Below are positions 4,001-63,313 of a stretch of DNA of 64,000 nt, one piece after another. The notes under the pieces are model-generated. The model worked only from the letters and a program-made list of their open reading frames with translations, ran no database searches and had not been told where the DNA came from. Each line of letters begins with the position of its first letter. Position 1 is the stretch's first letter. The stretch comes from Lama guanicoe (taxonomy: Eukaryota): the NCBI GenBank assembly GCA_013239625.1, contig MU053588.1:459988-523987 (forward strand). The letters are read 5' to 3'. Both the position numbers and the translations under genes were made by a program.

Positions 4001-4348
4001 TTTTTTTTTTTAAAGAATGCAGCCTATGTGTTTTGCCACCTTGAATCCCCCTGACATTGTCATGCATCCTTTTACCACCTCCACCATCAGTTACCTTCTT
4101 TTCGTATCATTCCTGCTTATAGAAACTCGCTTCAGGATGTGGTCTGCTCCTCATGGGAATGAATATTTCTTATTTTTCTTTGCAGCATCTCTGAGGTTTC
4201 CTACATAGTTCTTTCCTTTGCTTTTGGCCACATTTCCAAGTAATTTGGAGTTTTCGGTTTTCTGTTTCCTGATGGTTAGGATTTACTTTTATTTTCCTTG
4301 TTCCTTTCCACATGGTTTCCAAGGGGAGTAATGTCAGGTTTAGAACTA

Positions 4349-4565
4349 CAGTTGACCCTTGAACAACATGGGTTTGAACCGGGAAGGTCCACTTATACAT
4401 GGATTTTTTCAATAAATAAATACTGTAGTACTACACGTTCCCCTGGTTGGTTGAATCCTGGGTCGATTGAATCCTCAGATGCAGAACCATGGATATAGAG
4501 GAACTCCATAAAGTTATGTGCATATTTTAACTGTGTGAGGGTGGGCGTTGTTCAAAGGTCAACTG
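4349..4565 (+). mobile_element. Tigger2-family MITE (Tc1/mariner DNA transposon)
   Basis: Terminal inverted repeats CAGTTGACCCTTGAACAAC...GTTGTTCAAAGGTCAACTG flanked by a TA target duplication. Confidence 0.85.
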
Positions 4566-6896: not shown

Positions 6897-7067
6897 GGGG
6901 GGAGGGTATAACTCAAGTGGTAGAACACATGCTTAGCATGCACAAGGTCCTAGGTTCGATCCCCAGTACCTCCTCTAAAAATAAATAAATAAAAATCTAA
7001 TTACTTCCTCCAAAATTTTTTTTTTAAAAAAAGGAGTCCCTAATGAAAAACAACAACAAAAATCCAA
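6897..7067 (+). mobile_element. tRNA-Ala-derived SINE (camelid vic-1-like)
   Basis: tRNA-like head with A/B boxes, A-rich tail, TSD AAGAGCATAT (6887-6896 and 7068-7077). Confidence 0.85.
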
Positions 7068-11160: not shown

Positions 11161-11554
11161 CTTTTTTTTTTTTTTTAGAGAATTAATCTTTTAATGCTTA
11201 ACATGTGCTAAATGTTGATTATACCATACTGGGTGAAACAGTCTTAAATCTTTAAGTGGTATTCCATGATTGGGGTAGTACCTGAACAATCTTTCTTTGT
11301 TGTTGAACTCCTCAGATGAATTTGACCCAAACAAAACTTTATATATCTAATCACCTGCCTCAACTTTTATCAGTTCTTTTAAATTTTCTATTTATTTTTT
11401 AGGCTTTTTTCATATTGCCCAGAATTTGAGAATTTTTAAACCCATTCACATTTCATATGCTCTGTTTATTTTAGGATTCAACTCTTATGTCAGCATTGGA
11501 AATTTTATTTTTTTGAACAGTAAAACTGTATGAATTTATCTTCTTATTTTTCAG

Positions 11555-13236
11555 ACATGCAGTCCAGGTGTCAGACCAAGAAGTTATCACCAAAAAATGG
11601 CGTTTTTCACAGAGAATTTCCTCAATGGGAAATAATGGAAATTTGTAAAAAACGTAGTCTTGAATGTTTATGTTTTAGAGGTGATTGGGAGAGCAAAAGT
11701 CGGTTTGAAACACTACAGAAAAATCAGGAAGAATGTTTTAAGCATGTTTTACTCTCCTGTGAAAAAATTCCCACTTTTAACCAGGACACAGCTTTTAATC
11801 TGCATCATAGACTTGATATAGGAAAGAAACTGAATGTATTTAAAGAGTGTAGTACAGCCTTTTATTCTGGCTCAGACTGTATTCAACAACAGTTAATTCA
11901 AACTGGTGAAAAATTTTGTGACAATAAGGAATGTGGCAAGATTGTTCTTCCCAATTCAGAGTTTACTAAATATCAGACAGCTCACACTGCTAAGAAAACA
12001 TATGAATGTAAAGAATGTGGGAAGTCTTTTAGTTTGCGTTCAAGTCTTACTGGTCATAGGAGAATCCATACTGGTGAAAAACCTTTTAAATGTAAGGAAT
12101 GTGGGAAGGCCTTTAGATTTCATTCACAACTTAGTGTCCATAAGCGTATTCATACAGGTGAGAAATCTTATGAATGTAAGGAATGTGGGAAGGCCTTTAG
12201 TTGTGGCTCAGACCTTACTCGACACCAGAGAATTCATACTGGTGAGAAACCCTATGAATGTAATGAATGTAGGAAGGCCTTTAGTCAGCGATCACATCTT
12301 ACTAAACATCAGAGGATTCACACTGGTGAAAAACCTTATGAATGTAAGGAGTGTGGGAAGGCTTTTACTCGTGGCTCACATCTAACCCAACATCAGAGAA
12401 TTCATACTGGTGAGAAATCTCATGAATGTAAAGAATGTGGAAAAGCCTTTATTCGTGGTTCAAATCTTGCTCAACATCAGAACGTTCATGTTGGCAGGAA
12501 GCCCTATGAATGTGAGAAATGTGGAAAAGCCTATATCTGGAGTTCACACCTTGCACGACATCAGCGAATTCATACTGGTAGGAAACCTTATGAATGTAAG
12601 CAATGTGGGAAGACTTTTATTTGGGCCTCATACCTTGCTCAACATGAGAAAATTCATAATGAGAGGAAACTCTATGAGTGTAAGGAATGCAGAAAGACCT
12701 TTCTTCATGGCTCAGAGTTTAATCGACATCAGAAAATTCATACTGGTGAGAGAAACTATGAATGTAAGGAATGTGGAAAGACCTTTTTTCGTGGTTCAGA
12801 ACTTAATCGACATCAGAAAATCCATACTGGAAAGAGATCATATGAATGTGAAGAATGTGGAAAAGCCTTTCTCTGGGGTTCACAACTTACACGACATCAC
12901 AGAATACATACTGGTGAGGAACCTTATGTGTGTAAAGAATGTGGGAAATCTTTTATCTGGGGTTCCCAGCTTACACGACATAGGAAAATTCATACTGAGG
13001 TAGAATCCTATAAATGTAAGGAAAATGACCAGTTCGTTAGTCACCATTCATATTTTACTGAAAAGAAAATTCACAATGGTGAGAATCCGTATCAATGGAA
13101 AGACTATGGGAATACCATTAGTCATGACTCAGACTTTGCTCAACACCAGAATATTTACACTTTTGAGAAATCCTATGAATATAAAGATCTTGAGACAGCA
13201 TTTTCTCCAAACTCTCACTTTACTTCATTATTGTGA
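11555..13236 (+). CDS. ZNF790: ZNF790 zinc-finger exon (12 canonical C2H2 fingers plus degenerate flanking fingers)
   Basis: ORF 11530-13236; acceptor 'ttcttatttttcag' ends at 11554. [11 protein letters not shown]..., the finger helices (LRSSL, FHSQL, CGSDL, QRSHL, WSSHL, WASYL, HGSEF, WGSQL) and the C-terminus SHFTSLL match my recollection of human ZNF790. Confidence 0.93.
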
Positions 13237-25559: not shown

Positions 25560-28540
25560 AAATGAATCAATTTAACAAAAAACAGTTACTAGTCATTATG
25601 AAATAGATAATTTGAATAACCCTATATAACTATTAAGGAACTTGAATTCATAATTTTGAATTTCCCAAAAAATTAATCACCAGGCTCAGTTTCCCTGGAG
25701 AATTCTACTAAACTTTTGTTTTTAAGTTTCCATGTGAACAGCAGTTGAACTGCCAAAGATTTAAAGAATTAACTCCAATTCTAGACAGTCTCTTCCAGAA
25801 GCACAGGATCACTTATGAAGCCAGTATTGACTTGATAGCAAAACCAGACATTCCAAAAAGAAGAAAACTACAGACCAATATTTCTCATGAATATAGTTGC
25901 AAACTCCATAGCAAAATACTAATAGAATTTATCAGCATGTAAAGAATTATATTCACCATGCCAAGTAGGGTTTATTCTATGCATGCTAGACTGGTTCAGT
26001 ATTTGAAAATCAATGTAATCTACCGTTTTAACAGATCAAAAAAGAATATTACTTGATCATATCAATTATACTGAAAATGTACTTGACAAGTTCATAGCCC
26101 ATTCATCATTTTCTTAAAAAACTCTTGGAAACTAGGAATAAATGGGAGAACTTCCTCAACCTATAAAGAATATTTACAACAAGCCTACAGTTAACATCAG
26201 ATGTAATGGTGAATGACCTGAGTGCTTTCTTTATCCCTAAGATTGGGTACAAGGCAAGGACATTCACTCTCACCACTACTACTCAACATAGCTCTATACA
26301 TTCTGCCCAGTGAAATAAAGCACAACAGAAATAAAAATGCATACAGCTCAGAAAGGAGTGCCTAAAACTCTTCCTTTTTGCAGATGATGAAATGGTTTAT
26401 GTAGAAAATCTCAAGGAATCTACTACATAAGAAATTTCTAGAAGTAATGAGTAATTTTAGCAAGGTCACAAGATACTAGATCAACTTGCAAAATTAATTA
26501 TATTTCTATTACTAGCAATGAACACATGGAAACAAAAGTACAATAGCATTTACAATCGCCTCAAGAATTAAATACCTAGGTGCAAATCAAACAAAACAAG
26601 TATAGGACTCTTTGCAGATAAATACAAAACACTGACAAAAGAAATCTAAGGTCTAAATAAGTTGAGAGACAGTCCTTGTTCAGAGACTGGAAATTCAACA
26701 CAGTAAAAATGTCCATTCTCCCCAAACTGATACACAATTTAATGTAATTACTATAAAAATCTTAATAAATTTTGTATACAATATGCTAAAATTTATTTTG
26801 AGAAACAAACTAGAATAGCTAATACAATTCTGAAAAAGAAGAGTTAAATGGTAGGACTCCCTCTACGCAATTTTAAGACTAATTACATAGCTATAATAAT
26901 CTATGGTATGATATTGTCAGGGGTTAGATATTTAAGTTGATGGAAGAAAACAAAGGATAAAGAAATAGCCCCACACAAGTATGGCAAATGGATTTGTGAC
27001 AAAGATGTAACTTAATACAATAAAAGATGGATAGTCTTTTCAACAAATGGTGCTGGAGTAACTAAATACCCATAGGCAAAATAATCTATCTAAACCTCAC
27101 ACTACAAACAAAATTTAACTTGTAATGGATAATAGGTTTAAACTGTAAACTGTAAAAGTGTCAAATTTTTAGAAGATAAAACATGAGAAGATACTTCTGA
27201 TCTATTTACTGGTAGCAACATGACAGTACACATAACACCAAAAGCATGATCATAAAAGAAATGATTGGACTTCATCAAAATATAAAACTTCTGCTCTGCT
27301 AAAACCTTGTTAAGTAGATGAAAAGACAAGCTATAGATTGGGAGAAAAATTTGCATACCAACCAGAACTCCAACAAACCCAGATAATCCAACAGAAGGAC
27401 CCATAAATATATAAAGCACCCAAAACTCAAAAAGTTTTTTTAAAAAACAAACAGTATGTTTAGAAAATGGGCAAAAGGCATGAAGAGGTATTTCACCAAA
27501 GAGAATTTATGGAAGAGGTTAAAGTCCAGTGGTTAGGGTGCCTGCTTAGCATGCATGAGGTTCTGGGTTCAATCCCCAGTACCTCCACTAAGACAAATAA
27601 GCCTAATTATCTCCCTGCCCTCCCCCCCAGAAAAAACCCAGAGAGAGCTTATGGATGGCAAATAAGTGCATGAAATGATATTCAATGTCACAGCCATTAG
27701 CAAAAAGCAAACATGAAACTATGATGAGAAACCACCACGTGCCTATCAGAAAATCTAAAAAATAACAATACCATAAATTCTGGCAAGGATGTGGAGAAAC
27801 TCAATCTCATATATTCCTGGTGGGAATGTAAAATGGTACAGCCACTCTGGAAAAATAGTTTGGCAGTTCTTTAAAAAAAAAAAAGAAAACTTACCGTTTA
27901 ACTCAGCAGTTGTACACCTGGACATCCCAGAGAAATGAAGGATTTAGCCCACACAGAGTTGTTCTGTGATTGTTCACAGCAGCTTTATCTGTAGTAACCA
28001 AAAATGGAAACAACAAAAATGGTCCTCCATACCCTGTAATAACACTTAGCATTAAAAAAAGGAATGAACTATGGATACAAGTTAACAATTTAGATAGATC
28101 TCAAGAATATTATGCTGAGTTCTGAAAGCCAACCTCAAAAGGTCACATACTGTACAATTCCATTTATATAACATCCTTGAAATGACAAAATTACAGAGAT
28201 GTGAAATAGGTGAATGGTTTCCAGGGATTAGGGATGGTGGAGAGGGGTGCAGGTATGATTTATAAAGGGGTAGCGTGAGAAAGATCTTTGTGGGGTGAAA
28301 TAGTTCTGTATCTTGACTGCAGTGGTGATTACATGAATCTATGTACATGATAAAATGACATAACTATATATACATGTTGTCCCAATGTCTAATTCCATGG
28401 TTTGATATTGTACCATAATTACATAAGATGTAACCATTGATAGATACTGATTGACGTATAATCAGGACTATCTTTGTACTATCTTTGCAACTCCCTGTAT
28501 ATCTATAATTATTTCAAAATTTAAAAGTAAAAAAAAAAAC
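25560..28540 (+). mobile_element. Old L1 (L1MC-like) ORF2 and 3' end, decayed
   Basis: Continuous degenerate L1 ORF2 sequence ending in an L1MC-like 3' UTR and A tail at about 28530. Confidence 0.75.
27511..27640 (+). mobile_element. tRNA-derived SINE (vic-1-like)
   Basis: 'gcttagcatgcatgaggttctgggttcaatccccagtacctcc'; imperfect TSD agaga(at/gc)ttatgg. Confidence 0.8.
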
Positions 28541-33379: not shown

Positions 33380-33850
33380 CTGGGCACTTATTCTTGAAAT
33401 GGGTCTGCCTTACCTGGATATAATTCCACAATACTGAACGTGCTGTTCATCACCATATTGTCCCACTCAGCACTGATTTTGACTATGGAACTCATTACAC
33501 AGCAGAAGAAGTGAATCAAGAGCTAATATCCATGGATTCACTAGGTTTAGGCACACATCTCCAGAATTAACTGACACTATACAACGCTGGAAAGACCTAC
33601 TGAAGAATCCATTATGTTATCAGCTAAGAGGAATATCATGTAATGTTGGGGACAGTGTCCTGTAAAACGTATTTACCTTAAACCAGAGATGAATACATTG
33701 TACTATTTCTCCAGTAAACTTATATATACAGATGGGTTCAGGAACCAAAAGTGGAAGGAAGTCACCCTAGATATTCTTGTATCTCACCACAATTTTTGCT
33801 TCCCATCACTACAATATTGCGTTATGCTAGTTTAGAGATCTTACTTGTAT
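33380..33850 (+). mobile_element. Old ERV-L internal fragment (integrase region), no LTR seen
   Basis: Degenerate ERV-L integrase-like sequence 'gactatggaactcattacacagcagaagaagtg', 'acaacgctggaaagacctactgaag', 'gggttcaggaaccaaaagtggaa'. Confidence 0.55.
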
Positions 33851-34476
33851 TCTGATAAAATTTAAATTCTCAGTTTCCATTCCTAGCCAAAAAGAATCAC
33901 AGCATACAAGATAAAGACCTTTTGCACTTTCTGAGATAAGCAGATGCTGGCTAGCATTTGTGGAAGATGTGCCAGAGAGCTAAAACTGTCATCATCCTGT
34001 GCCAGCAATAAGGCAGCTCCATCACACTGTATCTGGAAATCTGCTCAGGCTGTGTGTTTTGAGCACAGTCCTGACTACCAAGATACCCCAGGAATAACCT
34101 GCCTAGGTTTTCCTCCCAGCTGGTGGACAACTTCAGATGCTCTGTGTACATGAAGCCTGTCTACCATCCTCACCTTGCAGTAACCAGGAACTTGATTTAA
34201 ATGGGAACCACAGAGTCATAATATAAACCCCAAAATATTGAGGATACAATAATTATATATACACACACATCAAAAATTGGGGGAAATCTCAAAGCAAATG
34301 ACAAAGAAATAATAGATGTCAACAGGAAGTTGATACAGATATTGGAATTATCTGACATGGATTTTTTTTGACATGGATTTTTAACTACAAAAACTCATCC
34401 AAGATGAATAGTCTGATACTTGTTAAAGTAATTAAATCCATAAATTACAACCTTCAGAAGAAGACATCTCCAGGCC

Positions 34477-34960
34477 TGTATATAGTCAGGGTTTTTCAGA
34501 GAAAAACAGTACCAATAGGATATAAAAGGAGATTTGTAATGAGGCCTTGCCTTATGTGATTATGGAGGCTGAGAAATCCCCTGATCTGCCATGTGCAAAA
34601 TGGAGATGCAGAAAAGCCAATGGTATAATTCAGAGTCCAGAGACCTGAGAATCAGTGGAGCCAATGATGTAGATCCCAGTCTGAGGACAGGAGGAGATGA
34701 GGTGAGATGTCCCAGCTCAAGCAATGGGTACAAAAACAGATGAGGTGAGAATTTCTCCTCCCTCTATTTGTTCTATTCAGGCCCTCAATGGACTGGATAA
34801 TGCCCACCCACATTGGAGAGGGCAACTTGCTTTACAGAGTCCACTGACTCAGATGCTAATCTCACTCAGAAACACCCTCACAGACATACCCAGAAATATT
34901 TAGCCAGATATCTGGGCGTCCTCTGATCCAGTCAAGTTGACACAAAATTTAACTATTACA
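34477..34960 (-). mobile_element. MLT2-type (ERV-L) LTR; 3' LTR of the composite provirus
   Basis: TG...CA termini; minus strand starts TGTAATAGTTAAATTTTGTGTCAACTTGACTGG (MLT2 signature), preceded by purine-rich GGGGTGGATA. Confidence 0.85.
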
Positions 34961-35779
34961 TATCCACCCCATGTCAGTTTGGCACTCATAGTGTTCTCCA
35001 TAAATCATACTTAATCTCCAAATAAAAACAATAACAAGGCCATAATTTCACCTAACATAATACAGCTGTCCTGGGTACAACTCACTTTTTCCCCAGAAGA
35101 GGATGAAAAGTCCTTGGGTGATCTTTTACTTTTCTCCTAGGTACCCTATAACCTAAATACTATGATGTAAAATTAACAATACTAGATACTATGGTATGAA
35201 AGTCAATCCTTGAAGACTATGATGTAAAGTTACATGATAAGGAAACAAGAAAGAAAAGAAGTCCAGGATGAACACACATTCATAACAAAATCAGGAGGCA
35301 TACTCATGACAATTACAGCCCTTATTTCTATAACTAGTCACTTGATCGTGCTTCTTTACCAGATTTCCATTCCTGAAAGGTCTGGGTCTTTAGTAGTCTT
35401 GCCTGGATTGAGCTGTTTTCCACTGACCTTAGTCACAGGTAATAAGAGATGCTCTGTGATCGCCTGTATTCCAGACGTACTCTTCCTTACCTCCACTGTG
35501 GAACAGTAGTCCAGTTTCTCCTTGGTAGTCAGGATCAGTCACTGAACCAACGCTGTAAACTCTTCTTTGCCCATTGATTCAGAGGTGTGAGGCCAAAGTG
35601 GCAGGAGGAAGTCTGAAGTTCCAGTTCACTGGAATCGTTGTTGTGTCACCTGGTGGAAGCAGTCTTCCCTCTGGAACCAAGACCTCTAACCCAGCAGGGC
35701 ATAAAGTCATGGGAACAAGAAGCATAAATTTTGATAGTGGGTCACTAGGGGTAACAGTGATACCACTCCCATTTCCAGC

Positions 35780-36951
35780 TGTAAAGGAAAACCTAGTTTT
35801 TCCCTGGGTGCTTCTTCCATGTGTGTCCTCTTTACTACTCAAAAGGAAATTTACTTCTGAGACTTCTGCTCACCAAATGTGTGTGTGGGGACCCTGCATC
35901 CCCACCAAGTAATCCTGTGCAACACCAGCTGGGTGTCCTACAATTCAACTCAGTTCTAACACCATTTGCCTAGAAATAGTATCAGACACACAGGTTAAGG
36001 GCTCAGTCCCACAAGACTACTCCCCACTTCAGATGCCAATTTCAAGTAGTAGGTCTCCATGTTTACAGCTTCTATTTTGAATTTGGCTACAAACTCACGG
36101 TTCCCATGCCTCCCTCCCTCAGGTTCAAGTAACCTGCTAGAGCAGTTCATGGAACTCAGGGAAGCACTTGCATTTACCTGTTTGCTGTAGAATATGATAA
36201 AGGATACAGATGAACAGCCAAATGAAGACACATAGGGTGAGACCTGGGAGAACCCCAAACACAGGAGCTTCTGTCCTCATGGAATTTATATGTCACTCTT
36301 CCGGTGTGGATGTGTTCACCAACTTTGAAATTCTTGAATCCTGTACTTTTGGGATTTTTATGGAGGCTTCATCATGGAGGCAAGATGGATCATTAATTCC
36401 ACTTCCAATCCTTCTCCCTTCTCTTGAGAAGGGTGGGCAGGGCTGAAAATTTCAAGGTTCTGATCATGCCTTAGTCTTTCTAGAGACCAGCCCTCATCCA
36501 GGAACCATCAAGGAGCCCACCTAGAGTTGCCCTGTTAGAACAGAAGATACCCCTATCACCCAGGAAACTACAAGCGTTTCAAAAGCCCTTTGTCAGGAGC
36601 CAGGTCAAAGACCAAATATTCGAATAAGATTTGCTGCTAGTGCTCTTATCTTTTAGGAAATTACAAAGGTTTTCATAGCTGAGCCAGGAACTAGAGGCAG
36701 AAACCTATGTGTATATATATACAGTTGACCCTTGAATGGGCTTGAACTGTGAGGGTCCACTTATGCATGGATTTTTTTCAATAAACACCATGAGTACTAC
36801 ACAATCCAAGTCTAGTTGAATCCATGGATGTGGAAATGCAGTTATGGAGGGCCGACTGTAAAGTTGTATGCAGATTTTCGACTGCATGAGGTGCTGGCAC
36901 CCCTAATTCCCAAACTGTTCAAGGGTCAACACAATTTTCTGTTGTCTTACA
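35780..36951 (-). mobile_element. MER21-like solo LTR nested in the ERV-L
   Basis: TG...CA termini; MER21 motifs 'acaccagctgggtgtcctacaattcaactcagttct', 'ggttaagggctcagtcccacaagact'; ERV-L sequence resumes on both sides. Confidence 0.75.
36722..36930 (+). mobile_element. Tigger2-family MITE nested in the MER21-like LTR
   Basis: CAGTTGACCCTTGAA...TTCAAGGGTCAAC inverted termini, inserted at a TA repeat. Confidence 0.82.
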
Positions 36952-38185
36952 CCACTCCTTGACTCCTGTATCCATGAATCCTGGCAACTGGAGAAATTGC
37001 CATATACTGGGTGCTGATTCAGCGCATATGCAGCCTTCTGGAGAACACAGCCTCAGCCTGCAAGGTATTGCCAACAGCTGATTGTGTAACCGAGTCTTCA
37101 AAAGGTCATCCCATCACTCTATCAAGCCAGCTGCTTCAGGATGGTGGGAAGCATGGTAAGACCAGTGAACTCCATGAGCATGGGCCCATTGCTGTACTTA
37201 TTTTACTGTAAAGTGAGTTCCTTGATCAGAAGCAATGCTGTGTGGAGTACGATGACAGTGGATAAGGCATTATGTTAGTCCATGGGTGGTAGTTTTGGCA
37301 GAAGCACTGCATGGAGGGAGGGCCAATCCATATTCAGAGTAAGTCTCTACTCTAGTAAGGACAAAATGCTGCTCTTTCCATGATGGAAGTGATTCAATTT
37401 AATCAACCTGCCACCAGGTATCTGGTTGAACACCCCTCGGGGAATGCTGTTATACTTGGGGGTTCAGTGTTTCTCTGGTGCTGGCAGAGTGAGCACACAG
37501 CAGTGGCCAGTCAGGCGAGCCCTGGTGAGTGGAAGTCCATGTTGCTGAGCTCATGCATAAAGTCCATCTTTTTCACCATGACCACTTTGGGTATTAACGG
37601 GGATGGCTAGGGAAAGAAACTGCTATCCACAGAATAGAACATCTTATCCACTCAATTATTAAAATCCTCCACTGAGATCACCCTTTAGTGAGTATTTATA
37701 CAGGACACAAATATCTTCAAAAATTTCTCAGAGTGGTCTATCCACACATCTCTTCCCCAGACTTCATTGTCACCAAATTTCCAAACATGTCCCTTTCATC
37801 ATTATCCTACATCCTTAGTAGCCATTCCCATACTTATTCCCTGGGTTTTTGTATAAATCAGAAAATCAAGTAGTCCTTTTGGAGTGTAGCACACCTCCAC
37901 AGGCCCCAAAATAAAGAGGGGTGGTGGGCATGGTTTCTGAGGAGAATCAGCATTGTTCTGCATGGTAACTGCTTCAGAAGAGGTCTTCATGGTTTCTTCA
38001 GGCAGTGCAGGGTTAATCTCCTCAGGTGGAGGTGGAAATGCTGAAGCCACTGTATAGGGATGCCACTTCCATTGGTAAAGACTCTGAACTTAGGAGCTCA
38101 ATGTCTCCAGCTTCATAGGAGTCTTCCCACATGTCCCCATGCCAATTTACAGAATCCTATTCTTTCCCAATTAATGCTGTCATTG

Positions 38186-38620
38186 TAAGTCATTAACCTT
38201 AAGTCATTTCACACTTCTTGCATTTTATTATAATCAGCCAGAAGGAGCCAAGCTACACCCTTAATTTCATTGCTCAGAAGTTCTACTTTCCACAAAACAC
38301 TAAAACACAAACACAATTTAACAAAGTTCTTTGCCACTTTATAAAAAGAATGACCTTTCCTCCAGTTTCCATTAACACGTTCCTCATTTCCACATCAGAC
38401 TGGTCTTTACTGCCATTCATAATTACTTATCCTCTAAGAAGATTGAAGTTTTTTCTTCAGCTCTCCTCTTTTCTGAGATTTCACCAGAATCAGCCTTAAC
38501 ATTCGTATTTTTTGCATGCATGTAAAAACTTTTTCAGCCTTTATCCACTCACTATTCAGCTCCAAAGCTGCTTCCTCATTTTTAGATATTTGTTACATTA
38601 GCACCCCACTTCTGGTACCA
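38186..38620 (-). mobile_element. MaLR (MLT1) internal sequence, 5' part
   Basis: Minus strand directly after the LTR reads 'aattggtaccagaagtggggtgctaatgtaacaaatatctaaaaatgaggaagcagctttggagctg', the typical MLT1-int start. Confidence 0.75.
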
Positions 38621-38623
38621 ATT

Positions 38624-38973
38624 TGTCTTAATCAGCTCTATATCACAGTACCATAGACTGGGTGGCTTATAGACAAATTTATTTCTCACAAGGTTAGAGG
38701 CTGAAAGTCTGACGTTAAGGTGCTAGCGTGGTCAGTTTCTGGTGAGAAACACCTTCCAGATTAAAGACTGCCATTTTCTTGTTATATTCTCACATGGCAG
38801 AAGAGGGTGAGAGAACGCTCTGCAGTCCCTTTTATAAGGGCACTAATCCCATTCAGGAGGGCTCCACCCTCATGACCTAGTTACCTCTGAGAGGCCCCAT
38901 CTCCTAATACCATCACATTGGGGGTTAGGATGCCAACACATGAACTTTGAGGAGACACATTCACTCCATTGCA
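38624..38973 (-). mobile_element. MLT1A-like (MaLR) LTR; 5' LTR of the composite provirus
   Basis: Minus strand starts TGCAATGGAGTGAATGTGTCTCCTCAAAGTTCATGTGTTG...CCCCCAATGTGATGGTATTAGGAGATGGGGCC (MLT1A signature), about 350 bp. Confidence 0.85.
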
Positions 38974-39350
38974 AGGCCTAAATGGTATTACTGGAAAATT
39001 CTACCAAACACTTGAAGAATAATTAACACCAATTCTACACTACCTTTTCCAGTAATCAAAAGGAGGCAACACTTCCAAACTCATGTTATGAGACCACCAT
39101 CAATCTGACACCAAAATGAGACAAAAGAATACAGCAAAACTATAGACTTTCATGAATATAGATGCAAAAATCCTCAACAAATTAGTAAGTCACAGCAAAC
39201 CCACTGAAATATATATTTTCAAGTATACACTACAAATGGAGTTTACCCCAGTGATGCAAAGCTTAGTCAATATTTGAAAACCCATAAAGGTAATCCATCA
39301 TATTAAGTATATTAAAAAAAATCACATCACACTCATTTTATCAACTGATG
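38974..39350 (+). mobile_element. L1 ORF2 fragment, continuing about 34380-34476 across the provirus
   Basis: 'tctccaggcc|taaatggtattactggaaaattctaccaaacac' rebuilds a contiguous L1 ORF2 segment. Confidence 0.75.
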
Positions 39351-41300: not shown

Positions 41301-41602
41301 GCAGCCTCCATAGGTATACTGTACAGATGAAAAAAGAAGTGATAATAGGTTAGGATCAAAAGCTTTTCCACATTCACTCCTTTAAGAGTTTCTCTGAAGA
41401 AGGAATTTCCTAAAGTTTAACATGATTTGAGTGGTGATGAAAGATTTCTATGTATTAAGTTAACATGTTCTTTTAAATAAAATCTCTCATTTTAATTCTA
41501 AGCATGAAGCAAAAGGGATCCCTACAATCAAACACATTTCCTCCAGAATCTATTTTCTAATGATCCTTAACACAAAATTCACGATGGATGGCTTTCTTAT
41601 AA

Positions 41603-43006
<1,404 letters not shown>

Positions 43007-46084: not shown

Positions 46085-46302
46085 CAGCTGACCCTTGAAC
46101 ATGAGGATTAGAAGAGCCAATACCCTCTCCCCAATACTGAAAATCCACGTATAACTTTCCAGTTGGCCCTCCATATATGCAGTTCTGCATCCAGAGATTC
46201 AATCAACCTCGGATCATGTAGAACTGTAGTATGTATTTATTTTTTAAAACCCATGTATAAATGGACCCACAGCTTAAACCCATGTTGTTCAAGGGTCAAC
46301 TG
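46085..46302 (-). mobile_element. Tigger2-family MITE
   Basis: CAGCTGACCCTTGAAC...GTTCAAGGGTCAACTG with TA duplication; inverse orientation to 4349-4565. Confidence 0.85.
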
Positions 46303-47509
46303 TATAAACAAGTGAACTGTAATCTTATGATTTGTGTAAAAAGTCAGCCATGGTTGTTCCCAGATTTGTTTATGACAGTTCTTTTCCCTGCAAGACAACC
46401 ATTTCTATTTATGAAAACTACGTTCAATGCTTTGGAAGTTCTGGCTATGCATGCACATTGCATTGTTGTCAAAGGCATGAGTGAGATACTAGTAAAGATT
46501 GATGGGAAACATAAAAATTCATGAAGGATTCTGCAAGTAGACTGCTTTACAAGTATCTAGGTTCTTGGTCTACTTTAAATAAAAAGAAACTGAAATAATA
46601 GCTAAGCAATATACATGTGATTTAATCAAGAAACACTGGCTAGACCTACTCTGAAACAAAAGGCCACACTAAACACCAAAAGATTGGCCTAGGTAGGAAA
46701 TTTTAATGTTCTAACTTTAAAGATTCTCTCTTAACGTATGATACTAGCTGTATTCTATTGAATCAAAGGGCTTTATGCTAATGTGAATAATGCTAATAAG
46801 ATGAATAATACTAACATGAATTAGCCCATCTTAGAGCAATGTAAAAGGAGAAATGTTATTTCCATTTTCAGGATATCGGCTTTACTTAAAAAGACAATAA
46901 GGAGCAAATTACCTGGTCACAAAGTTAATCTGTTTCCTAAGATATGATACCTTCGATATACAAGATGATACGGATACAGAGTATTTATGACAGAGGCGGT
47001 TTAGTCACATTAACACCAGGGTTAATGTATCAAAAGATCTGTTAAGTGTTAAAACTCTGTAACACAGAATTATACTTGTGTGAATCAAAACTGATCAAAT
47101 ACTGAATAATCCATACTGAATTCCAAATAATTCTCACATTCTGCTGATAATTTTCCTGCTTACTTTCATCAAGGAATCAGAACTGAAAGAAAAATGTTAT
47201 TCTCCCCTCAGTATGTTATCCAACCATCCTTATCATATGCATTGGTTTTCTTTCATATATTCGCTCTTAGTCCTTCCCTTTTACTGAAGGTCATTGCTTA
47301 CAAACTATCCTCTGTCTCTCTACTCCATCAATCTTAATCTTCCTCTTTGCAATCATTCCCTTCAGCCTACAAATATATTCTAATACCTCACATCGTAAGA
47401 TAGTTTCCCTGTACCCTACGTGTCTGCTTTTATTCCTCCAAAAAGTTATATATATATTTTCACTAATGCCTCACCTCTTTCTTTTCCTTGTCTCCTAATA
47501 ACTTTAAAA

Positions 47510-57576: not shown

Positions 57577-57630
57577 AAAGAACCTGGCTTTTGGAGGCGC
57601 AGCGGCGATTCGTTTCACTTCTTAGACCTT
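57577..57630 (-). other. ZFP30: Probable ZFP30 non-coding 5' UTR exon
   Basis: Minus-strand acceptor 'gtttccttccccagccctgccggtctccacag' (alternative AG would start the exon at 57648) and donor GTGAGT at 57576-57571. Confidence 0.45.
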
Positions 57631-58730
57631 CTGTGGAGACCGGCAGGGCTGGGGAAGGAAACAGGGTTCATTACAACGCAGGCTTTTCGTGACTCCGTCA
57701 AAATCCACCCTCCACGCCCCCTTGACTCGCTACCCACCACCTGCAGCCACAAATGGAAGCGAGAAGGCGGGGATACGGGCCGCGGTCACCCGTGTCCGGG
57801 TCTGCAGCTCTGCGTACGCGGTAGTTCGGACACCACAACCGCCCACCCCCGGGGCGGCCCACCGCGTCTCCGTAGGAGACTTTCGTTCCGAGGCTCCACC
57901 TATGACTTCCCCCTTAGGCCTTTTCTCCAAGGCCGGGCCTCAGCGGCTGAGGCCAGGAAGGTGGTACGCGGGACCTCAGCGTCTCGCATTACAGAATAGG
58001 CCGGGGCGGCGCCCAGTTACGGCCGCACGAGCTTAATCCCCGCGCAACCCGGGCTCAGAACTGCAGGCCCTCACTCCGGACCAAACGCCTGGTGACCGGA
58101 GACAGAAGACTCACCCTCGACCTGGTCCGCAAAACCTGGCCCGACCCGCGCTCGATTCCTTCAAAACTGCAGCGGCCACCACGGAGCTTCCCTCACAGCC
58201 CTCAAGCTCCAGGCTCCAAGGACCCCCGGCGCTAAGTGTGAGCCGCCGAAATTCCGCAGAGTGCCTTCTAGGTCCCAAGTGCGCAGGCGCGCACGGGGCG
58301 GTGAGGGGGGAGGGGCAGGTCCCTCGGCTCCTCAGGAAGGGCTTGGAGACGCGAAGGGGAGCTAGAGCCCCGCGGGACGGGGCGGGCAGGGAAGCAACGC
58401 TCCCTAGCAGGCCGGATCCTCGCCTGTAAAGGTGGCCCCCTGACTAATTGGCGCTATGGAGGATAATCCAGGCTGCTCCTCTGTTGGAATTGTAATCCAA
58501 AATCAGACAAGCTATAGACACCAGCTTTTCTCATTTGGGTTCTTGGCTCCGCAACCGGCGTAAGCTCGGAGCACCGATCCCCTCCCCAAGCCCAGCGCTC
58601 AGGGTCCTGGGAGGTATTGTTTCTGTCCCCAGTGCCCAAGCGCGCAGGTGGAGGGCGTAGAACCTGGGGTTCTCCAGCGAGCTGAAGAAAGGCTCTTGGG
58701 GCCACGCACCCTGAGGGCGGCGGGGTGGGA
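57590..58730 (-). promoter_or_regulatory. ZFP30: CpG island / ZFP30 promoter with probable first exon (donor after 58115)
   Basis: Only strongly CpG-rich region in the window. Minus-strand donor 'gagg|GTGAGT' at 58114-58109, NRF1-like TGCGCAGGCGCG at 58280-58291, GC boxes near 58295 and 58379, degenerate ZNF143/THAP11-type ACTACAATTCC-like motif at 58482-58496. Confidence 0.85.
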
Positions 58731-58731
58731 G

Positions 58732-59263
58732 TGTTGCAAGAAAATGGAGCCCGAGATCGTGCCCTAGGCTTCCGGCAAGTTTCTGGGTGCACCCTGCTGA
58801 GTAAGAATCCTTAGCTTCCTGCAGGGAAGAATTCAAGAGTGAGCCATAGTAGAGTGAAAGTAGATTTATTCAGGGAGATACACGCTCCACAGACAGAGTT
58901 TGGGCCACTTCAAAAGGAAAGAGGGAGAGAGAGAGGGGAAGCCCTGAGAGGGACTGGGTTGTTAGTTTTTATGAGCCGGGTAATTTCATATGCTAATAAG
59001 TGGGAGGGTTATTCCAACTATTTTGTGGAGGGGTGGGGATTTGGGGGGAATTGAGCCACCACCCACTTTTTAATCTTTTATAGCCAGCCGGGGAACTGTC
59101 ATGGTGCCTGCAGGTGTGTTATTTAGTATGCTAATATATTACAATAAGGGTCCACTGGAAGTCAAATCTTCCACCATCTTGGCTGTAACGAGTTTATGTA
59201 CTATCATCAATTTCTGTGTCATTCTTTTAATGGTTGTGCCCTGCCCCCTTCCCTCCTGTCTCA
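58732..59263 (-). mobile_element. MER41-like ERV1 solo LTR (copy 1)
   Basis: TG...CA termini, imperfect 4-bp TSD ggag/agag; MER41-like motifs on the minus strand (CAAGATGG, TTAGCATA, AATAAA...CTCTTGAATTCTT). Confidence 0.8.
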
Positions 59264-59553
59264 AGAGAAGTAAGGGGGTTGGTATAAAGCGATTGGAGCC
59301 AGAATTCCAAGTTGGTCTTAAGTGTCCAGATCTTTAGACTTAATGATGACCCTGACTGTGATATCCTAGTGCCCCGAGGAGGGTCCCTGTGGCGTTTGCT
59401 GATGGACTGGTGTGTGTGGACAGGATTGTGTTTGGATGGTGGTGTTTCTGGAATGTGTGCCACTCCTTTGGGTGCTGGACTGAAAGGATGCCACAGAGAA
59501 GATTGCCTGCTATTATGCTGGACTGTGACACTAGATTTAGGGGTGTCCCGGGA

Positions 59554-60287
59554 TGTTGAAGAGGAAGAAATTTTCTTCTACCCTTCTTAGTTCTTCTGGC
59601 TGATCTACAAAATAAGTCGACATGAGACTGATTAAAAGAAAATCAAACAAAAATTTAATAAACTGGTCACATAGGAGAGACCCAGGAAAACTGAGTAACT
59701 CACCAAAATGGCTGAAGCCTGTCAGCTAAAGACCAAAGAGGATGTTGGGGTTAGTGGTTTGGGACTTCAAAGGGGAGGAAAGCAATCCACATGGAGATGA
59801 AAAGCAAGTGTTTGGTGAACAAATGTTTGCTAGGCTACACAGAAACAATGAGACACAGAATAGTTTCCATTCCAGGCCCCACTAAGAGTTTCCCCATCAC
59901 ATTTAGCCCATATTCTTTGCAGATGTCTCTATTGATAGCTCTATTCCTGGAACAGCCCTTTATCTAAAATCTTTAGGCAGCTAAGTGGGAGGTAAAAAGA
60001 AAGACTTCCTGAGTCTTATGTTTCTTCAAAATAATCAGCCTAACTAGTTTATACTGTAAAGTACAGGGAACTTTATTCAATATCTTGTAGTAACCTACAA
60101 TGAAAAAGAATATAAAAATGAATATATGTATCTATATGTATGACAATTATGCTGTACTCCAGAAATTGACACAACGTTGTAACACTGAAATGACAAAAAT
60201 AATACATACATAAAAAATAATAATCAGCCTAAGTTAATCCTCATGCCAAAAAGACACATTTTGTGGGGCAAATTTTGCTCCCCTACA
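59554..60287. mobile_element. ERV solo LTR (family not identified) containing an L1 3'-end insertion (60044-60218)
   Basis: TG...CA ends ('tgttgaagagg'...'gctcccctaca'); nested L1 tail flanked by TSD AATAATCAGCCTAA. Confidence 0.65.
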
Positions 60288-60474
60288 GTGGCTTCCTTTG
60301 TGAAGTGCCAGAGACTGTGTATATCATGAAGGTGGCTGTGCCCTGAAGGAAACCAGAGTATGTCACCCAAAACATGCATCTTTGAGCTGAGGGCAATTTA
60401 GAAGCATTAAAGGCAAGAAAAGCTCTCTACCCTCTCCCATTTCTGCATAAATGCAGGATATAAATTCTCCTTTA

Positions 60475-60962
60475 TGTGATGCCAACTGCTGCCTGCAGAG
60501 GCCCTGTGACCCCCATTCCTGGGCTCTCAGATGTCTGCCTGCAATCCCTCAAAAACAAAGTACACCCTTTTCTGACTTGTATTTGCCCTAGCAGAATTAA
60601 ATAGTCCTGGGAAGTGGCTAACCTCCCCATAGCTCAGGCTGACTTGTCTCAGCCGTTTCCTCCTTTTGAGTTGTAAATGCCACCACCTTGCCTTATACCA
60701 AAGCACCGTCTCACTTATAGCCAATCAATAATCTGTTCCCCTGTCCCTTTGTGTGCACAGCTCCTTCCTCAATAAAAGACCCTGCATGTTCACCCTCAGT
60801 TCTCACACAGGCACCTCTCCTCTGTGGCCGGCTGTTTCCTGTAGCAGCTATCTATTAAACTTTTCCTTTGTTTCTCAAACTTTCCTTTGTCTCTCAAACT
60901 TTCCTTTGTCTTTGTTAAGTTCTTTTACAGCCCATGACACTGGCCTGTTGTGTGCCCCAACA
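60475..60962 (+). mobile_element. Nested solo LTR
   Basis: TG...CA termini, near-perfect 5-bp TSD cttta/tttta, CCAAT and AATAAA/ATTAAA motifs. Confidence 0.7.
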
Positions 60963-61232
60963 TTTTACTGGAGGACAACTCTAGACTTTTAGCCCATATA
61001 TAGCCCCTAAGGAATCTGCAAATAAACACTCCTTTAGTTTCCTCCAACTTGCCAACCCTGGAGTCCTAAAATTGTTTTTCTTTACCCTATCATTTCTCTA
61101 TAAATTCATGTTCCTTGTCAAAGATGCTATATAAGGTAGAGTTCAAGGCCACCAGTTTGCATTACTCTCTTTAAGGTTTCTCCCATATAACATGCGCACA
61201 CAAGTTAATAAATTGTTTTTCTCCTATTAATC

Positions 61233-61771
61233 TGTTAAAGAGCTGCATTACAGGAGAGGATGGTCACGTCCCAGGTCTTGGGTGAGTCTCTGGCACATGC
61301 TGCCAAGTGAGGGTCCTTGGCTTCCCGCAGGAAAGAATTCAAGAGTGAGCCAAATAAAGTGAAAGCAAGTTTATTTAGAGAAATATACATTCCACAGACG
61401 GAATGTGGTCCACCTCAGAAAGGAGAGCAGCCCTGGGGTGCAACGGGGTTGTTTTTATGGGCTAGGTAATTTCATATGCTAACAAGTGGGAGGGTTATTC
61501 CAACTATTTGGGGGAAGGGGCAGGGATTTCCAGGAATTAGGCCATTGCCCACTTTTGGACCTTTTGTGGACAGCCTTGGAACTGTCGTGGCACCTGTGGC
61601 TGTCATTTAGCATCTATTATATTACAGTGAGTATATGATGAGGCTCAAAGACTACTGGAAGTTGAATCTTCCATTATATTAAGCCTAGTCGGTGGTAACC
61701 AGTATTTGTCCTATTCTCAATGGCTGTCATTCTTTTAGTGGTTATGTCCTGCCCCCTTCCCTCCTGTCTTA
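61233..61771 (-). mobile_element. MER41-like ERV1 solo LTR (copy 2) with intact GAS motif
   Basis: Aligns by eye with copies 1 and 4; minus strand 'aataaacttgctttcacttta...gaattctttcctgcgggaagccaaggaccctc' resembles MER41; TTCCAGGAA at 61528-61536. Confidence 0.8.
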
Positions 61772-62059
61772 GCCCCCCGCTAAGAGACTAAGATGGCTAG
61801 AGGTAAGATTTTTCCTCTCTTACAGCCTTATTGTGTGTTATTTCTGGGATGGTTTTGATAGGCCAGCACTTCTAGTTCTTGCTTTCCAGCGGCACAGTGT
61901 TTGTGGGTCACTGTGCTACTGGGTGTTGAGATTTTGATGATCAACATCTTGGCCATTAAGTGTGCCCTCAGATATGTGGTGCTGTTGTTACCAAGGCTGT
62001 CCCCCAGCATCATACCCCTGCTCCTTCCTCAAATAGAAAGCAACTATTCTTATCTCAGG

Positions 62060-62585
62060 AGGAAAGCTGCAAAAAGAAAAAAAAAAAAGAACAAGTTAGA
62101 AAGAACTAGGCCCAAGATGGTGGAAGATTTGACTTCCAGTAGACATTAAGCATAATTATACACTCATTGTAATACATTAGCATGCTCAATAACACAACCA
62201 CCAGTGCCATGACAGTGGAAATTGTTGTGACAACTACTGGAAAAGCCCATAAAAGAACTGAAAAGGAAAGCATCAGTTCCAGGTACAAACTACAAACATG
62301 TCCTCAGATAACATAAATATTTCCCCCACTCTTTCCAATTCCTTGCCCTTTACCTCCACCCTCCTATGTATTTGGTGTCTCCACCGGATTTCGGTTGAGA
62401 AGTTGATTTGGAAACCGGGTTCCCAATTCTCCATTCTTTAGCCATTGAATAAAGCTTGTGCTTTTCCAGTCTCAGCATTGTTTTCATTATTGGCTGCACT
62501 AATCTGACTGGAAAAAGAACGTCCCTAGTCGAGTCTTGGCCTGGGCTAGGACCCTGGCATGAGTCCAGTTGACAAATTCGGTAAC
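62060..62585 (+). mobile_element. MER41-related solo LTR (copy 3, opposite orientation, divergent)
   Basis: 'ccaagatggtggaagatttgacttccagt...cattagcatgctcaataacacaaccaccagtgccatgacag', AATAAA, terminal 'cggtaaca'. The 5' boundary is uncertain. Confidence 0.7.
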
Positions 62586-62685
62586 ACTGTGGCTATTGGA
62601 TGAGTAATTACAGGCAAAAGCAACATTAGAAAGGAAGAGGCAAGTTATCATTATTACTGAGTCATAGAATTGTCCCGAGTATTTT

Positions 62686-63313
62686 TGATGCAGGAAAATC
62701 AGATGTCGGGTGTGAGGAAGGCCATGTCCCAGGTTTCGGTTGAGCCCCTGGGACGTGCCCTGCCAAGTGTGGGTCCTTGGCTTCGTGCAGGAGAATTCAA
62801 GAGCCAGCCACCGTTGAGTAAAGGTAGATTTATTTAGAGATACATCAAAAGGCAAGAGAAAGGCCACGAGGTGTAGGGGTTGGGTGCTTAGATTAGAGTA
62901 AAAGTAGGTACACACTCCATAGACAGAGTGTGGGCCATCTCCGAGGAAGGAGAGAGAGGGGGTGACCACGAGGCGCCGTGTTGCCAGTTTTTTTGGGCTC
63001 AGTGGTTTCATATGCTAGTAAGTGGAAAGACCAGTCTAACCTGGGGAAGGGGCTGGGATTCCCAGGAAGTCGGCCATTTTCCACTCTTTACCCTTTTGTG
63101 GTTAGCCTTGGGATGGTCATAGCTCCTGTGGGCATGTTATTCACCATGTTAATTTATTACAATCGGTGTATAGTGAAACTCAAGGTCTACTAGAAGTCAA
63201 ATCTCCCACCATCTTGAGCCTCAAGGCCTTCTGGGCGTTGAATCTTTTGCTATTCTGGTGTTAATTGTTGTATTATTCCTTGGATGGCTGTGCCCTGCCC
63301 CTTTCCCGTCTCA
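62686..63313 (-). mobile_element. MER41-like ERV1 solo LTR (copy 4)
   Basis: TG...CA termini, same end 'gccctgcccc...gtctca' as copy 1, imperfect TSD tttt/ttct. Confidence 0.8.

Follow-up and report, generated by a model that had tools for sequence, protein, structure and literature searches.

How a single provirus came to end in two unrelated long terminal repeats (LTRs) is the question raised by an element in a 64,000-nucleotide stretch of Lama guanicoe DNA (contig MU053588.1 of assembly GCA_013239625.1; the whole stretch is called the window, and positions are counted from its first letter). This chimera of MaLR and ERV-L sequence occupies 34477 to 38973, with TG at 34477 and CA at 38973, and its parts read on the minus strand. 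Sequence inspection places identical AGGCC copies to its left (34472 to 34476) and right (38974 to 38978), just as an earlier note on this DNA had described, and TG...CA ends with a 5-bp target-site duplication (TSD) are those of a canonical provirus. Given the window's own 5-mer frequencies, two flanking 5-mers agree with a probability of 0.0016. The anatomy of the element, its TSD, its unrelated LTRs, the parentage of its interiors and its nested insertions were observed directly. A shared TSD calls for a single integration, or else for two that hit the same five bases. The most likely reading is a single integration event in which both families took part; this agrees with the earlier note and is favored by the single TSD, the unrelated LTRs and the colinear L1 around them. 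Both ERV-L and MaLR elements make 5-bp TSDs (PMC4516963, PMC2836564, PMC5930517).

The chimera lies within remnants of L1 ORF2 on the plus strand. The right flank (38979 to 39320) matches L1 ORF2p residues 472 to 550 (E 1.6e-4), reads G-L-N-G-I-T-G-K-F-Y-Q with the match starting at G472, and aligns as DNA to an L1 copy elsewhere in the window. The left flank (34416 to 34471), weak alone, aligns to positions 25626 to 25685 of that copy and closes with the codons K-K-T-S-P-G; we take K-S-P to stand ahead of G472 in L1 ORF2p. A glycine codon lies within the TSD on either side of the chimera. Both flanks fall in order on the L1 copy at 25626 to 26043, with a joined score of 128 against a maximum of 49 in 300 shuffles, and the L1 reading frame across them is kept with one AGGCC copy and broken with two. 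The target also carries T at -3 and A at +3, in keeping with the T-N9-A motif given for MaLR and common to MLT2 (PMC2836564), although taken alone this is weak support.

The two LTRs could not be aligned to each other. The 5' LTR (38624 to 38973, minus strand) is 350 bp long, runs from TG to CA and contains TATAA and AATAAA. The 3' LTR (34477 to 34960, minus strand), likewise TG...CA, is 484 bp long and follows the dUTPase, a 3' untranslated stretch and a purine tract. Their alignment scored 22 against a shuffle mean of 18.8, a value reached in 17/200 shuffles, and on the reverse strand 24, reached in 7/200, whereas old same-family repeat pairs within the window scored 317 and 124 as controls. 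The homologous LTR pair of a canonical provirus is thus missing (22 against the control of 317), and the candidate explanation that both LTRs belong to one diverged family is ruled out by the background-level score. These data support the claim that two different LTR families sit within one TSD. The last few bases at the 3' ends are common to both. No second copy of either LTR was found within the window, and the chimera also departs from a MaLR, which has no pol and a second MaLR LTR at its 3' end: here pol is present and the 5' LTR is single in the window. Because its LTRs are unrelated, the chimera cannot have collapsed to a solo LTR.

Each LTR was assigned to its family, MaLR for the 5' LTR and ERV-L for the 3' LTR, by its position and adjoining interior and not by a DNA reference. 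We presume that the 5' LTR is of MLT1A type and the 3' LTR of MLT2 type. Pattern scans for an MLT1A or MLT1A0 LTR were empty or at chance level, and no DNA reference for the LTRs or interiors matched among viral contigs, genome contigs and plasmids. Metagenome contigs gave 10 loci, none of which aligned past the seed, and no LTR or gag strings were found in the paper supplements searched. The position of the 3' LTR after the ERV-L 3' end and the pairing of HERVL with MLT2 LTRs (PMC5753468) fit MLT2. MLT1A and MLT1A0 are described as pan-eutherian (PMC10735291), and MLT1 and MLT2 as ancestral (PMC5538554). The CpG observed/expected ratio is 0.0 to 0.18, depleted in every part of the chimera, and CpG decay gave no age separation between the parts.

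Three nucleotides past the 5' LTR lies a primer-binding site (PBS) of the tRNA-Leu type (38603 to 38620, minus strand), identical at 18/18 positions to the Leu-typed PBS of the canonical HERVL chain in the supplements of PMC4724089. This site is absent from the earlier note's description. It is followed by about 430 bp of MaLR-type leader and decayed open reading frame (ORF; 38194 to 38602, minus strand) with 210 relatives at E<=0.001. Among the best 150 of these 210, 23 tblastn alignments end at 38194 to 38197 and one at 38185, four extend weakly to 38143 to 38161, and none goes below 38143. Thirteen alignments come up to the seam with at least 20 residues still to go, and every one of them goes on in sequence absent from the window. 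None of the 210 relatives, 17 of which are at least 200 amino acids long, carries the ERV-L gag motif found past the seam. A replicating MaLR/ERV-L hybrid family was also considered and finds no support in these counts (0/150 below 38143, none with the gag motif). The ORF had no Pfam match, and its relatives gave no family name (atlas matches all <0.9); we take them to be MaLR ORFs. The order proposed in the earlier note, an MLT1A-like LTR and then the start of an MLT1 interior, is seen on the minus strand as LTR, PBS and MaLR-type ORF, the MLT1 names being putative. By eye, the gag-like stretch of the ORF agrees with the published homology of about 90 amino acids between MaLR ORFs and gag (PMC3836709).

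The 3' half is ERV-L. A broken and internally deleted gag remnant (37800 to 38177, minus strand) begins with a match to Fv1, in which 38177 to 38121 agrees with residues 166 to 184 at 14/19 positions counted by eye; the remainder is presumably ERV-L gag as well. This piece had no match in protein database or Pfam searches, and its ERV-L type is recognized solely through the by-eye alignment to Fv1, a derivative of ERV-L gag (PMC3948346). It is followed by the RNase H end and integrase (36953 to 37795, minus strand; Pfam rve, E 6e-12), which correspond to residues 641 to 931 of mouse ERV-L Pol P0169 with 65% identity in the integrase core, and then by the pol C terminus with the dUTPase (35359 to 35761, minus strand; residues 938 to 1079 by tblastn, E 4e-33), which contains stops and a frameshift. 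The dUTPase match in Pfam (E 0.014) fell under the cut-off. Colinearity with P0169 (641 to 931 at 37795 to 36953, 938 to 1079 at 35761 to 35359) thus gives integrase and then dUTPase, with no env, as in ERV-L; residues 1 to 640 are absent. The co-oriented gag, pol and dUTPase remnants named in the earlier note are borne out. The purine tract that it placed before the 3' LTR is there by position (34961 to 34974, minus strand) but is decayed, with 10/14 purines, and weak as such.

Between Pol residues 931 and 938 lies a later LTR-like insertion of 1.17 kb (35780 to 36951, plus strand), absent from the earlier note's description. It runs from TG to CA, its flanking 5-mers are only 3/5 alike, and it is unrelated to both terminal LTRs; we take it to be MER21/MER77-like. 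Within it is a DNA-transposon remnant with terminal inverted repeats (36722 to 36932), presumably MER2/Tigger-like, with relatives in the window at 4347 to 4436 (80%; the span also appears as 4347 to 4461) and 46139 to 46306 (74%). Since pol is split by an insertion that itself holds a transposon, the order of insertion was L1, chimera, nested LTR and transposon. Stops, frameshifts and deletions interrupt every gene of the chimera, and the element is an inert fossil in which nothing points to a present function. Outside the TSD, on the opposite strand, lies another ERV-L-like integrase remnant that has diverged further (33433 to 33846, plus strand; 35 to 48% identity to P0169 and P0168; DNA score 100 against a shuffle maximum of 40). 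Separately, two database proteins under bacterial names, P0195 and P0196, are ERV-L Pol fragments, one of them flagged as contamination, and represent host DNA in bacterial records.

The halves meet at a seam (38176 to 38208, minus strand) that contains about 17 to 20 nucleotides of neither parent, in which neighboring sequence is repeated once directly (9 nt) and once in inverted form (6 nt). The switch into ERV-L that the earlier note put near 38185 is upheld as to its place, with MaLR-type similarity running to 38194 to 38197 and gag starting at 38177. In a by-eye alignment (7/20 identical), MaLR-type similarity stops at about Fv1 residue 99, and gag resumes at residue 166, so that about 65 codons are missing and the halves are near register but not in register. 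Direct repeats of the 9-nt type occurred in 6/1599 non-overlapping 40-nt tiles of the window, an underestimate in which border-straddling repeats, the seam's own among them, are missed and the true rate is roughly double. Templated repeats are a typical trace of templated end joining, and the scar, noticed post hoc, is more like such a product. The end of the MaLR half falls within the homology of about 90 amino acids between MaLR ORFs and gag (PMC3836709).

The MaLR half lacks 13 residues that are found in 72/87 spanning relatives, counting cluster members; 9 of the 15 remaining relatives have the same gap junction, and P0018 has it in a shifted frame. Over 38194 to 38502 (minus strand), the gap and odd residues are common to P0002, P0003, P0010, P0011, P0018, P0048 and P0211 to P0216, and the closest relatives are the overlapping P0002 and P0048 (24/28 against a mean of 0.59, and 16/19 against a mean of 0.53). 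Because only about five clusters have the gap, we consider it rather likely that the gap-sharing relatives are orthologues in other mammals; alternatively, they would represent a small, undescribed, internally deleted MaLR subfamily. Since these possible orthologues carry more MaLR sequence, the present seam is not to be taken for the joint first formed.

The locus was also looked for in sequencing runs. Between 75 and 96% of 140 words from 37900 to 39300, which spans the seam to the right flank, were contained in 20 of the 24 listed runs (4 organisms, 8 studies); word counts show presence and not contiguity, and the four runs at 0.00 are no evidence. The grounds for taking the locus as contiguous are the assembly, the shared TSD and the in-frame L1. 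A mis-join would not retain one TSD and an in-frame L1, and together with the words present in 20 runs from 4 organisms this makes an artifact of assembly scarcely credible.

Of the routes to a single event, we tentatively put forward, at somewhat less than an even chance, one integration of one recombinant MaLR/ERV-L cDNA made by a template switch and an intermolecular second transfer. An ERV-L particle would have packed one MaLR RNA and one ERV-L RNA, both primed. The minus strand started on the ERV-L RNA would have copied the 3' LTR, dUTPase, pol and part of gag, moved onto the MaLR RNA within or close to the MaLR ORF-gag homology and stopped at the MaLR primer site. Plus strong-stop DNA from the MaLR RNA, used in the second transfer, would have left a MaLR LTR on the left and an ERV-L LTR on the right, in the element's own direction, before ERV-L integrase put the cDNA into L1 with its 5-bp duplication. 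Internal deletions, probably including the present seam, the nested LTR and the DNA transposon would have come afterwards. The co-packaging, both strand-transfer steps and the order of deletions are what we infer.

The layout is as this model predicts, with LTR, PBS and leader from one parent, the 3' half, purine tract and LTR from the other, and both co-oriented. Template switching accounts for the co-orientation and the complementarity of 5' and 3' parts, which two-ended integration does not require, and the halves meet near register within an interior of 5 to 6 kb, inside the sole region of MaLR/ERV-L homology. In the HIV-1 model with divergent parents, completing gag on the other RNA favors an intermolecular second transfer (PMC5651808). 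Ordinary recombinants have identical LTRs (PMC6894440), and the earlier note had set reverse transcription aside as a source of unlike LTRs; that exclusion does not hold, since under the model of PMC5651808 an internal switch with intermolecular transfer yields LTRs from two parents. Both families are DUX4 targets (PMC3836709) and are abundant together in 2-cell embryos (PMC4516963), MaLR and MLT2 have a common target bias (PMC2836564), and both families have a Leu primer site, that on the chimera's MaLR side being identical to the HERVL PBS (PMC4724089). The 87-bp ORR1A3 MaLR fragment in MuERV-L (PMC5538554) indicates that the families had recombined before. Mismatched primer sites forcing an intermolecular transfer were considered and are ruled out, the PBS being of Leu type and present in HERVL itself.

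Several observations limit the L1 placement or weigh against the account just given. The left L1 flank alone scored 36, reached in 14/300 shuffles, and had no ORF2p match in the protein search; 4 nt are missing from the in-window L1 at the target, with best offsets of -4/-5, so that this copy does not fix the register. The claim that removing the element and one AGGCC copy restores L1 ORF2 stands on the ordered alignment, the frame and the right flank (E 1.6e-4). At the seam the halves are about 65 codons out of register, with a scar more like end joining, and P0011, P0048 and P0018 extend 18 to 21 residues past it in MaLR-type sequence; if the gap-sharing relatives are orthologues, the seam would have arisen by later deletion and the first joint may have disappeared from view. 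Second transfer is described as generally intramolecular (PMC5651808, PMC5086612), compatible primer sites remove the need for an intermolecular route, and the HIV model, too, was deduced from sequences (PMC5651808). A single case (n = 1) proves little.

Ordinary nesting with deletion is ruled out, since the target sequence would be lost or offset; as the earlier note argued, it cannot leave one TSD on unrelated LTRs. It would need both insertions at the same 5-bp target. Two independent insertions at one such target, followed by deletion of the inner LTRs and the middle AGGCC, are unlikely. Several large deletions have already occurred in the chimera (Pol 1 to 640 is missing), the seam looks like a repair scar that may be secondary, and a scan over many genomes favors picking rare events. 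MaLR and MLT2 also have their target bias in common, and insertion hotspots exist, which could lift the estimate several-fold (PMC2836564). However, from 386,000 MaLR and 35,000 MLT2 copies (PMC11319637) one would expect about 4.5 pairs, flush and co-oriented, in a 3-Gb genome, and 0.002 to 0.04 once both interiors and a suitable deletion are required, the retention and deletion fractions being assumed, and random deletion ends rarely fall near register. A single-event route operating at 1 in 100,000 insertions would, by our inference, give about four per genome.

One integration event could also have involved two cDNAs, either in an intasome holding a MaLR U3 end and an ERV-L U5 end, whose free inner ends were resected and then joined, or as cDNAs joined head to tail beforehand with the middle lost later. 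Taken together, these variants are a doubtful but serious alternative, and they imply co-mobilization as well. The single TSD, the intact outer TG and CA ends and the seam's templated repeats, rare among the tiles, speak for them; yet neither co-orientation nor near-register ends are required, and the scar is uninformative on origin if the seam is a later deletion. To our knowledge, two-molecule integration in vivo is rare. In zygotic break repair, microhomology links pieces of MaLR and MuERV-L cDNA (PMC4516963), and the capture of both cDNAs at breaks would likewise allow half of an ordinary provirus to be replaced after integration by gene conversion or cDNA capture from the other family. 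The last few bases common to the LTR 3' ends fit such a replacement, but the tract must end flush at the LTR end and spare the TSD without LTR homology, and the captured pieces described in PMC4516963 are truncated, mostly without LTRs and TSDs, making this origin very improbable.

The surroundings of the chimera include two convergent intact C2H2 zinc-finger exons, at 11554 to 13236 (plus strand) and 41600 to 42973 (minus strand), the latter presumably ZFP14-like. A tRNA-like SINE, which we assume to be of a camelid type, occurs in seven copies about 74 to 88% alike (at 6899, 8923, 27515, 30200, 45700, 45927 and 55060). The segment 29790 to 30200 (plus strand), which had no Pfam match in the one frame scanned, presumably derives from ATP synthase subunit f as a processed pseudogene, now decayed. 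A GC-rich, promoter-like island at 57600 to 58700 is followed, within 58794 to 63310, by three related LTR-like repeats (58794 to 59261, 61256 to 61769 and 62714 to 63221) that are 66 to 78% alike. L1 pieces are also present in the window.

MaLRs are the most numerous mammalian LTR elements, and a provirus with a MaLR end and an ERV-L end is the trace expected from co-packaging. Mobilization of MaLRs by ERV-L is stated from circumstance in PMC11319637 and "has been suggested" according to PMC4516963. Co-mobilization in some form is probable here, and the earlier note's view of the chimera as physical evidence for it is to that extent likely; recombination between the families is already in print. 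With a coincidence expectation well under 0.1 unrelated-LTR/TSD pairs per genome, the origin is testable by counting; if co-oriented cases proved more frequent than that, this would speak for intermolecular plus-strand transfer in a natural germ line and match MaLR subfamilies to their helpers. The chimera might be a frozen first-generation recombinant, in which co-packaged and primed MaLR and ERV-L RNAs were joined by intermolecular transfer, and one of an overlooked class of hetero-LTR proviruses, a conjecture we hold with considerable reserve. If it is true, such proviruses would have escaped attention in that LTR finders skip unlike ends and RepeatMasker splits them; unable to decay to solo LTRs, they would be expected in excess among old elements, and they could reveal which helper lineage served each MaLR wave.

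No MaLR/ERV-L provirus whose unrelated LTRs lie in a single TSD was found in the literature searched, which took in few subscription papers, and supplements (e.g., the hybrid-element lists behind PMC11319637) could contain such cases; a literature text search for peptides was empty. The chimera is an unusual fossil. In MuERV-L, the MT2xORR1 case (Franke et al. 2017, PMC5538554) likewise joins MaLR internal sequence to ERV-L, and MT2 LTRs are said there to resemble MaLR LTRs, but it is an 87-bp piece before the 3' MT2 LTR and not a half-and-half element with unrelated LTRs. Mosaic HERVs, Harlequin among them (Vargiu et al. 2016, PMC4724089; Kojima 2018, PMC5753468), are recombinants between ERV groups, explained there by co-packaging and template switching; unlike the chimera, such mosaics retain a single LTR type, and Harlequin, which replicated, has LTR2 at both ends. 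In the same accounts, MaLR pieces in mosaic HERV chains are mostly judged secondary or artefactual, and PMC10735291 describes MaLR mosaics as awaiting evidence. Template-switch complexes of the Triticeae (Sabot and Schulman 2007, PMC1950507) also hold two parents in one 5-bp TSD and are read as a single integration of an abnormal reverse transcription product, but have three LTRs, alike outer LTRs and parents of one family; the chimera has no internal third LTR of that kind, its nested LTR being unrelated and on the opposite strand, and its outer LTRs are dissimilar. Onsen recombinants (PMC5668417) are among the plant template-switch complexes with matching outer LTRs, and Triticeae complexes made by recombination have outer LTRs that differ but no TSD (PMC1950507). 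Zygotic-break joins (2015, PMC4516963) bring cDNAs of both families together by microhomology in one cell, but are truncated and mostly without LTRs or an integrase-type TSD, whereas the outer ends of the chimera are intact. In layout, the chimera resembles the product of the HIV-1 second-transfer model (Cappy et al. 2017, PMC5651808), in which the 5' LTR follows the gag donor and the 3' LTR the 3' donor. That model was inferred from later-generation U3/R breakpoints among HIV-1 groups, with R up to 25% divergent, whereas the chimera's parents belong to separate families whose LTRs do not align, and a germ line would have preserved its first-generation state.

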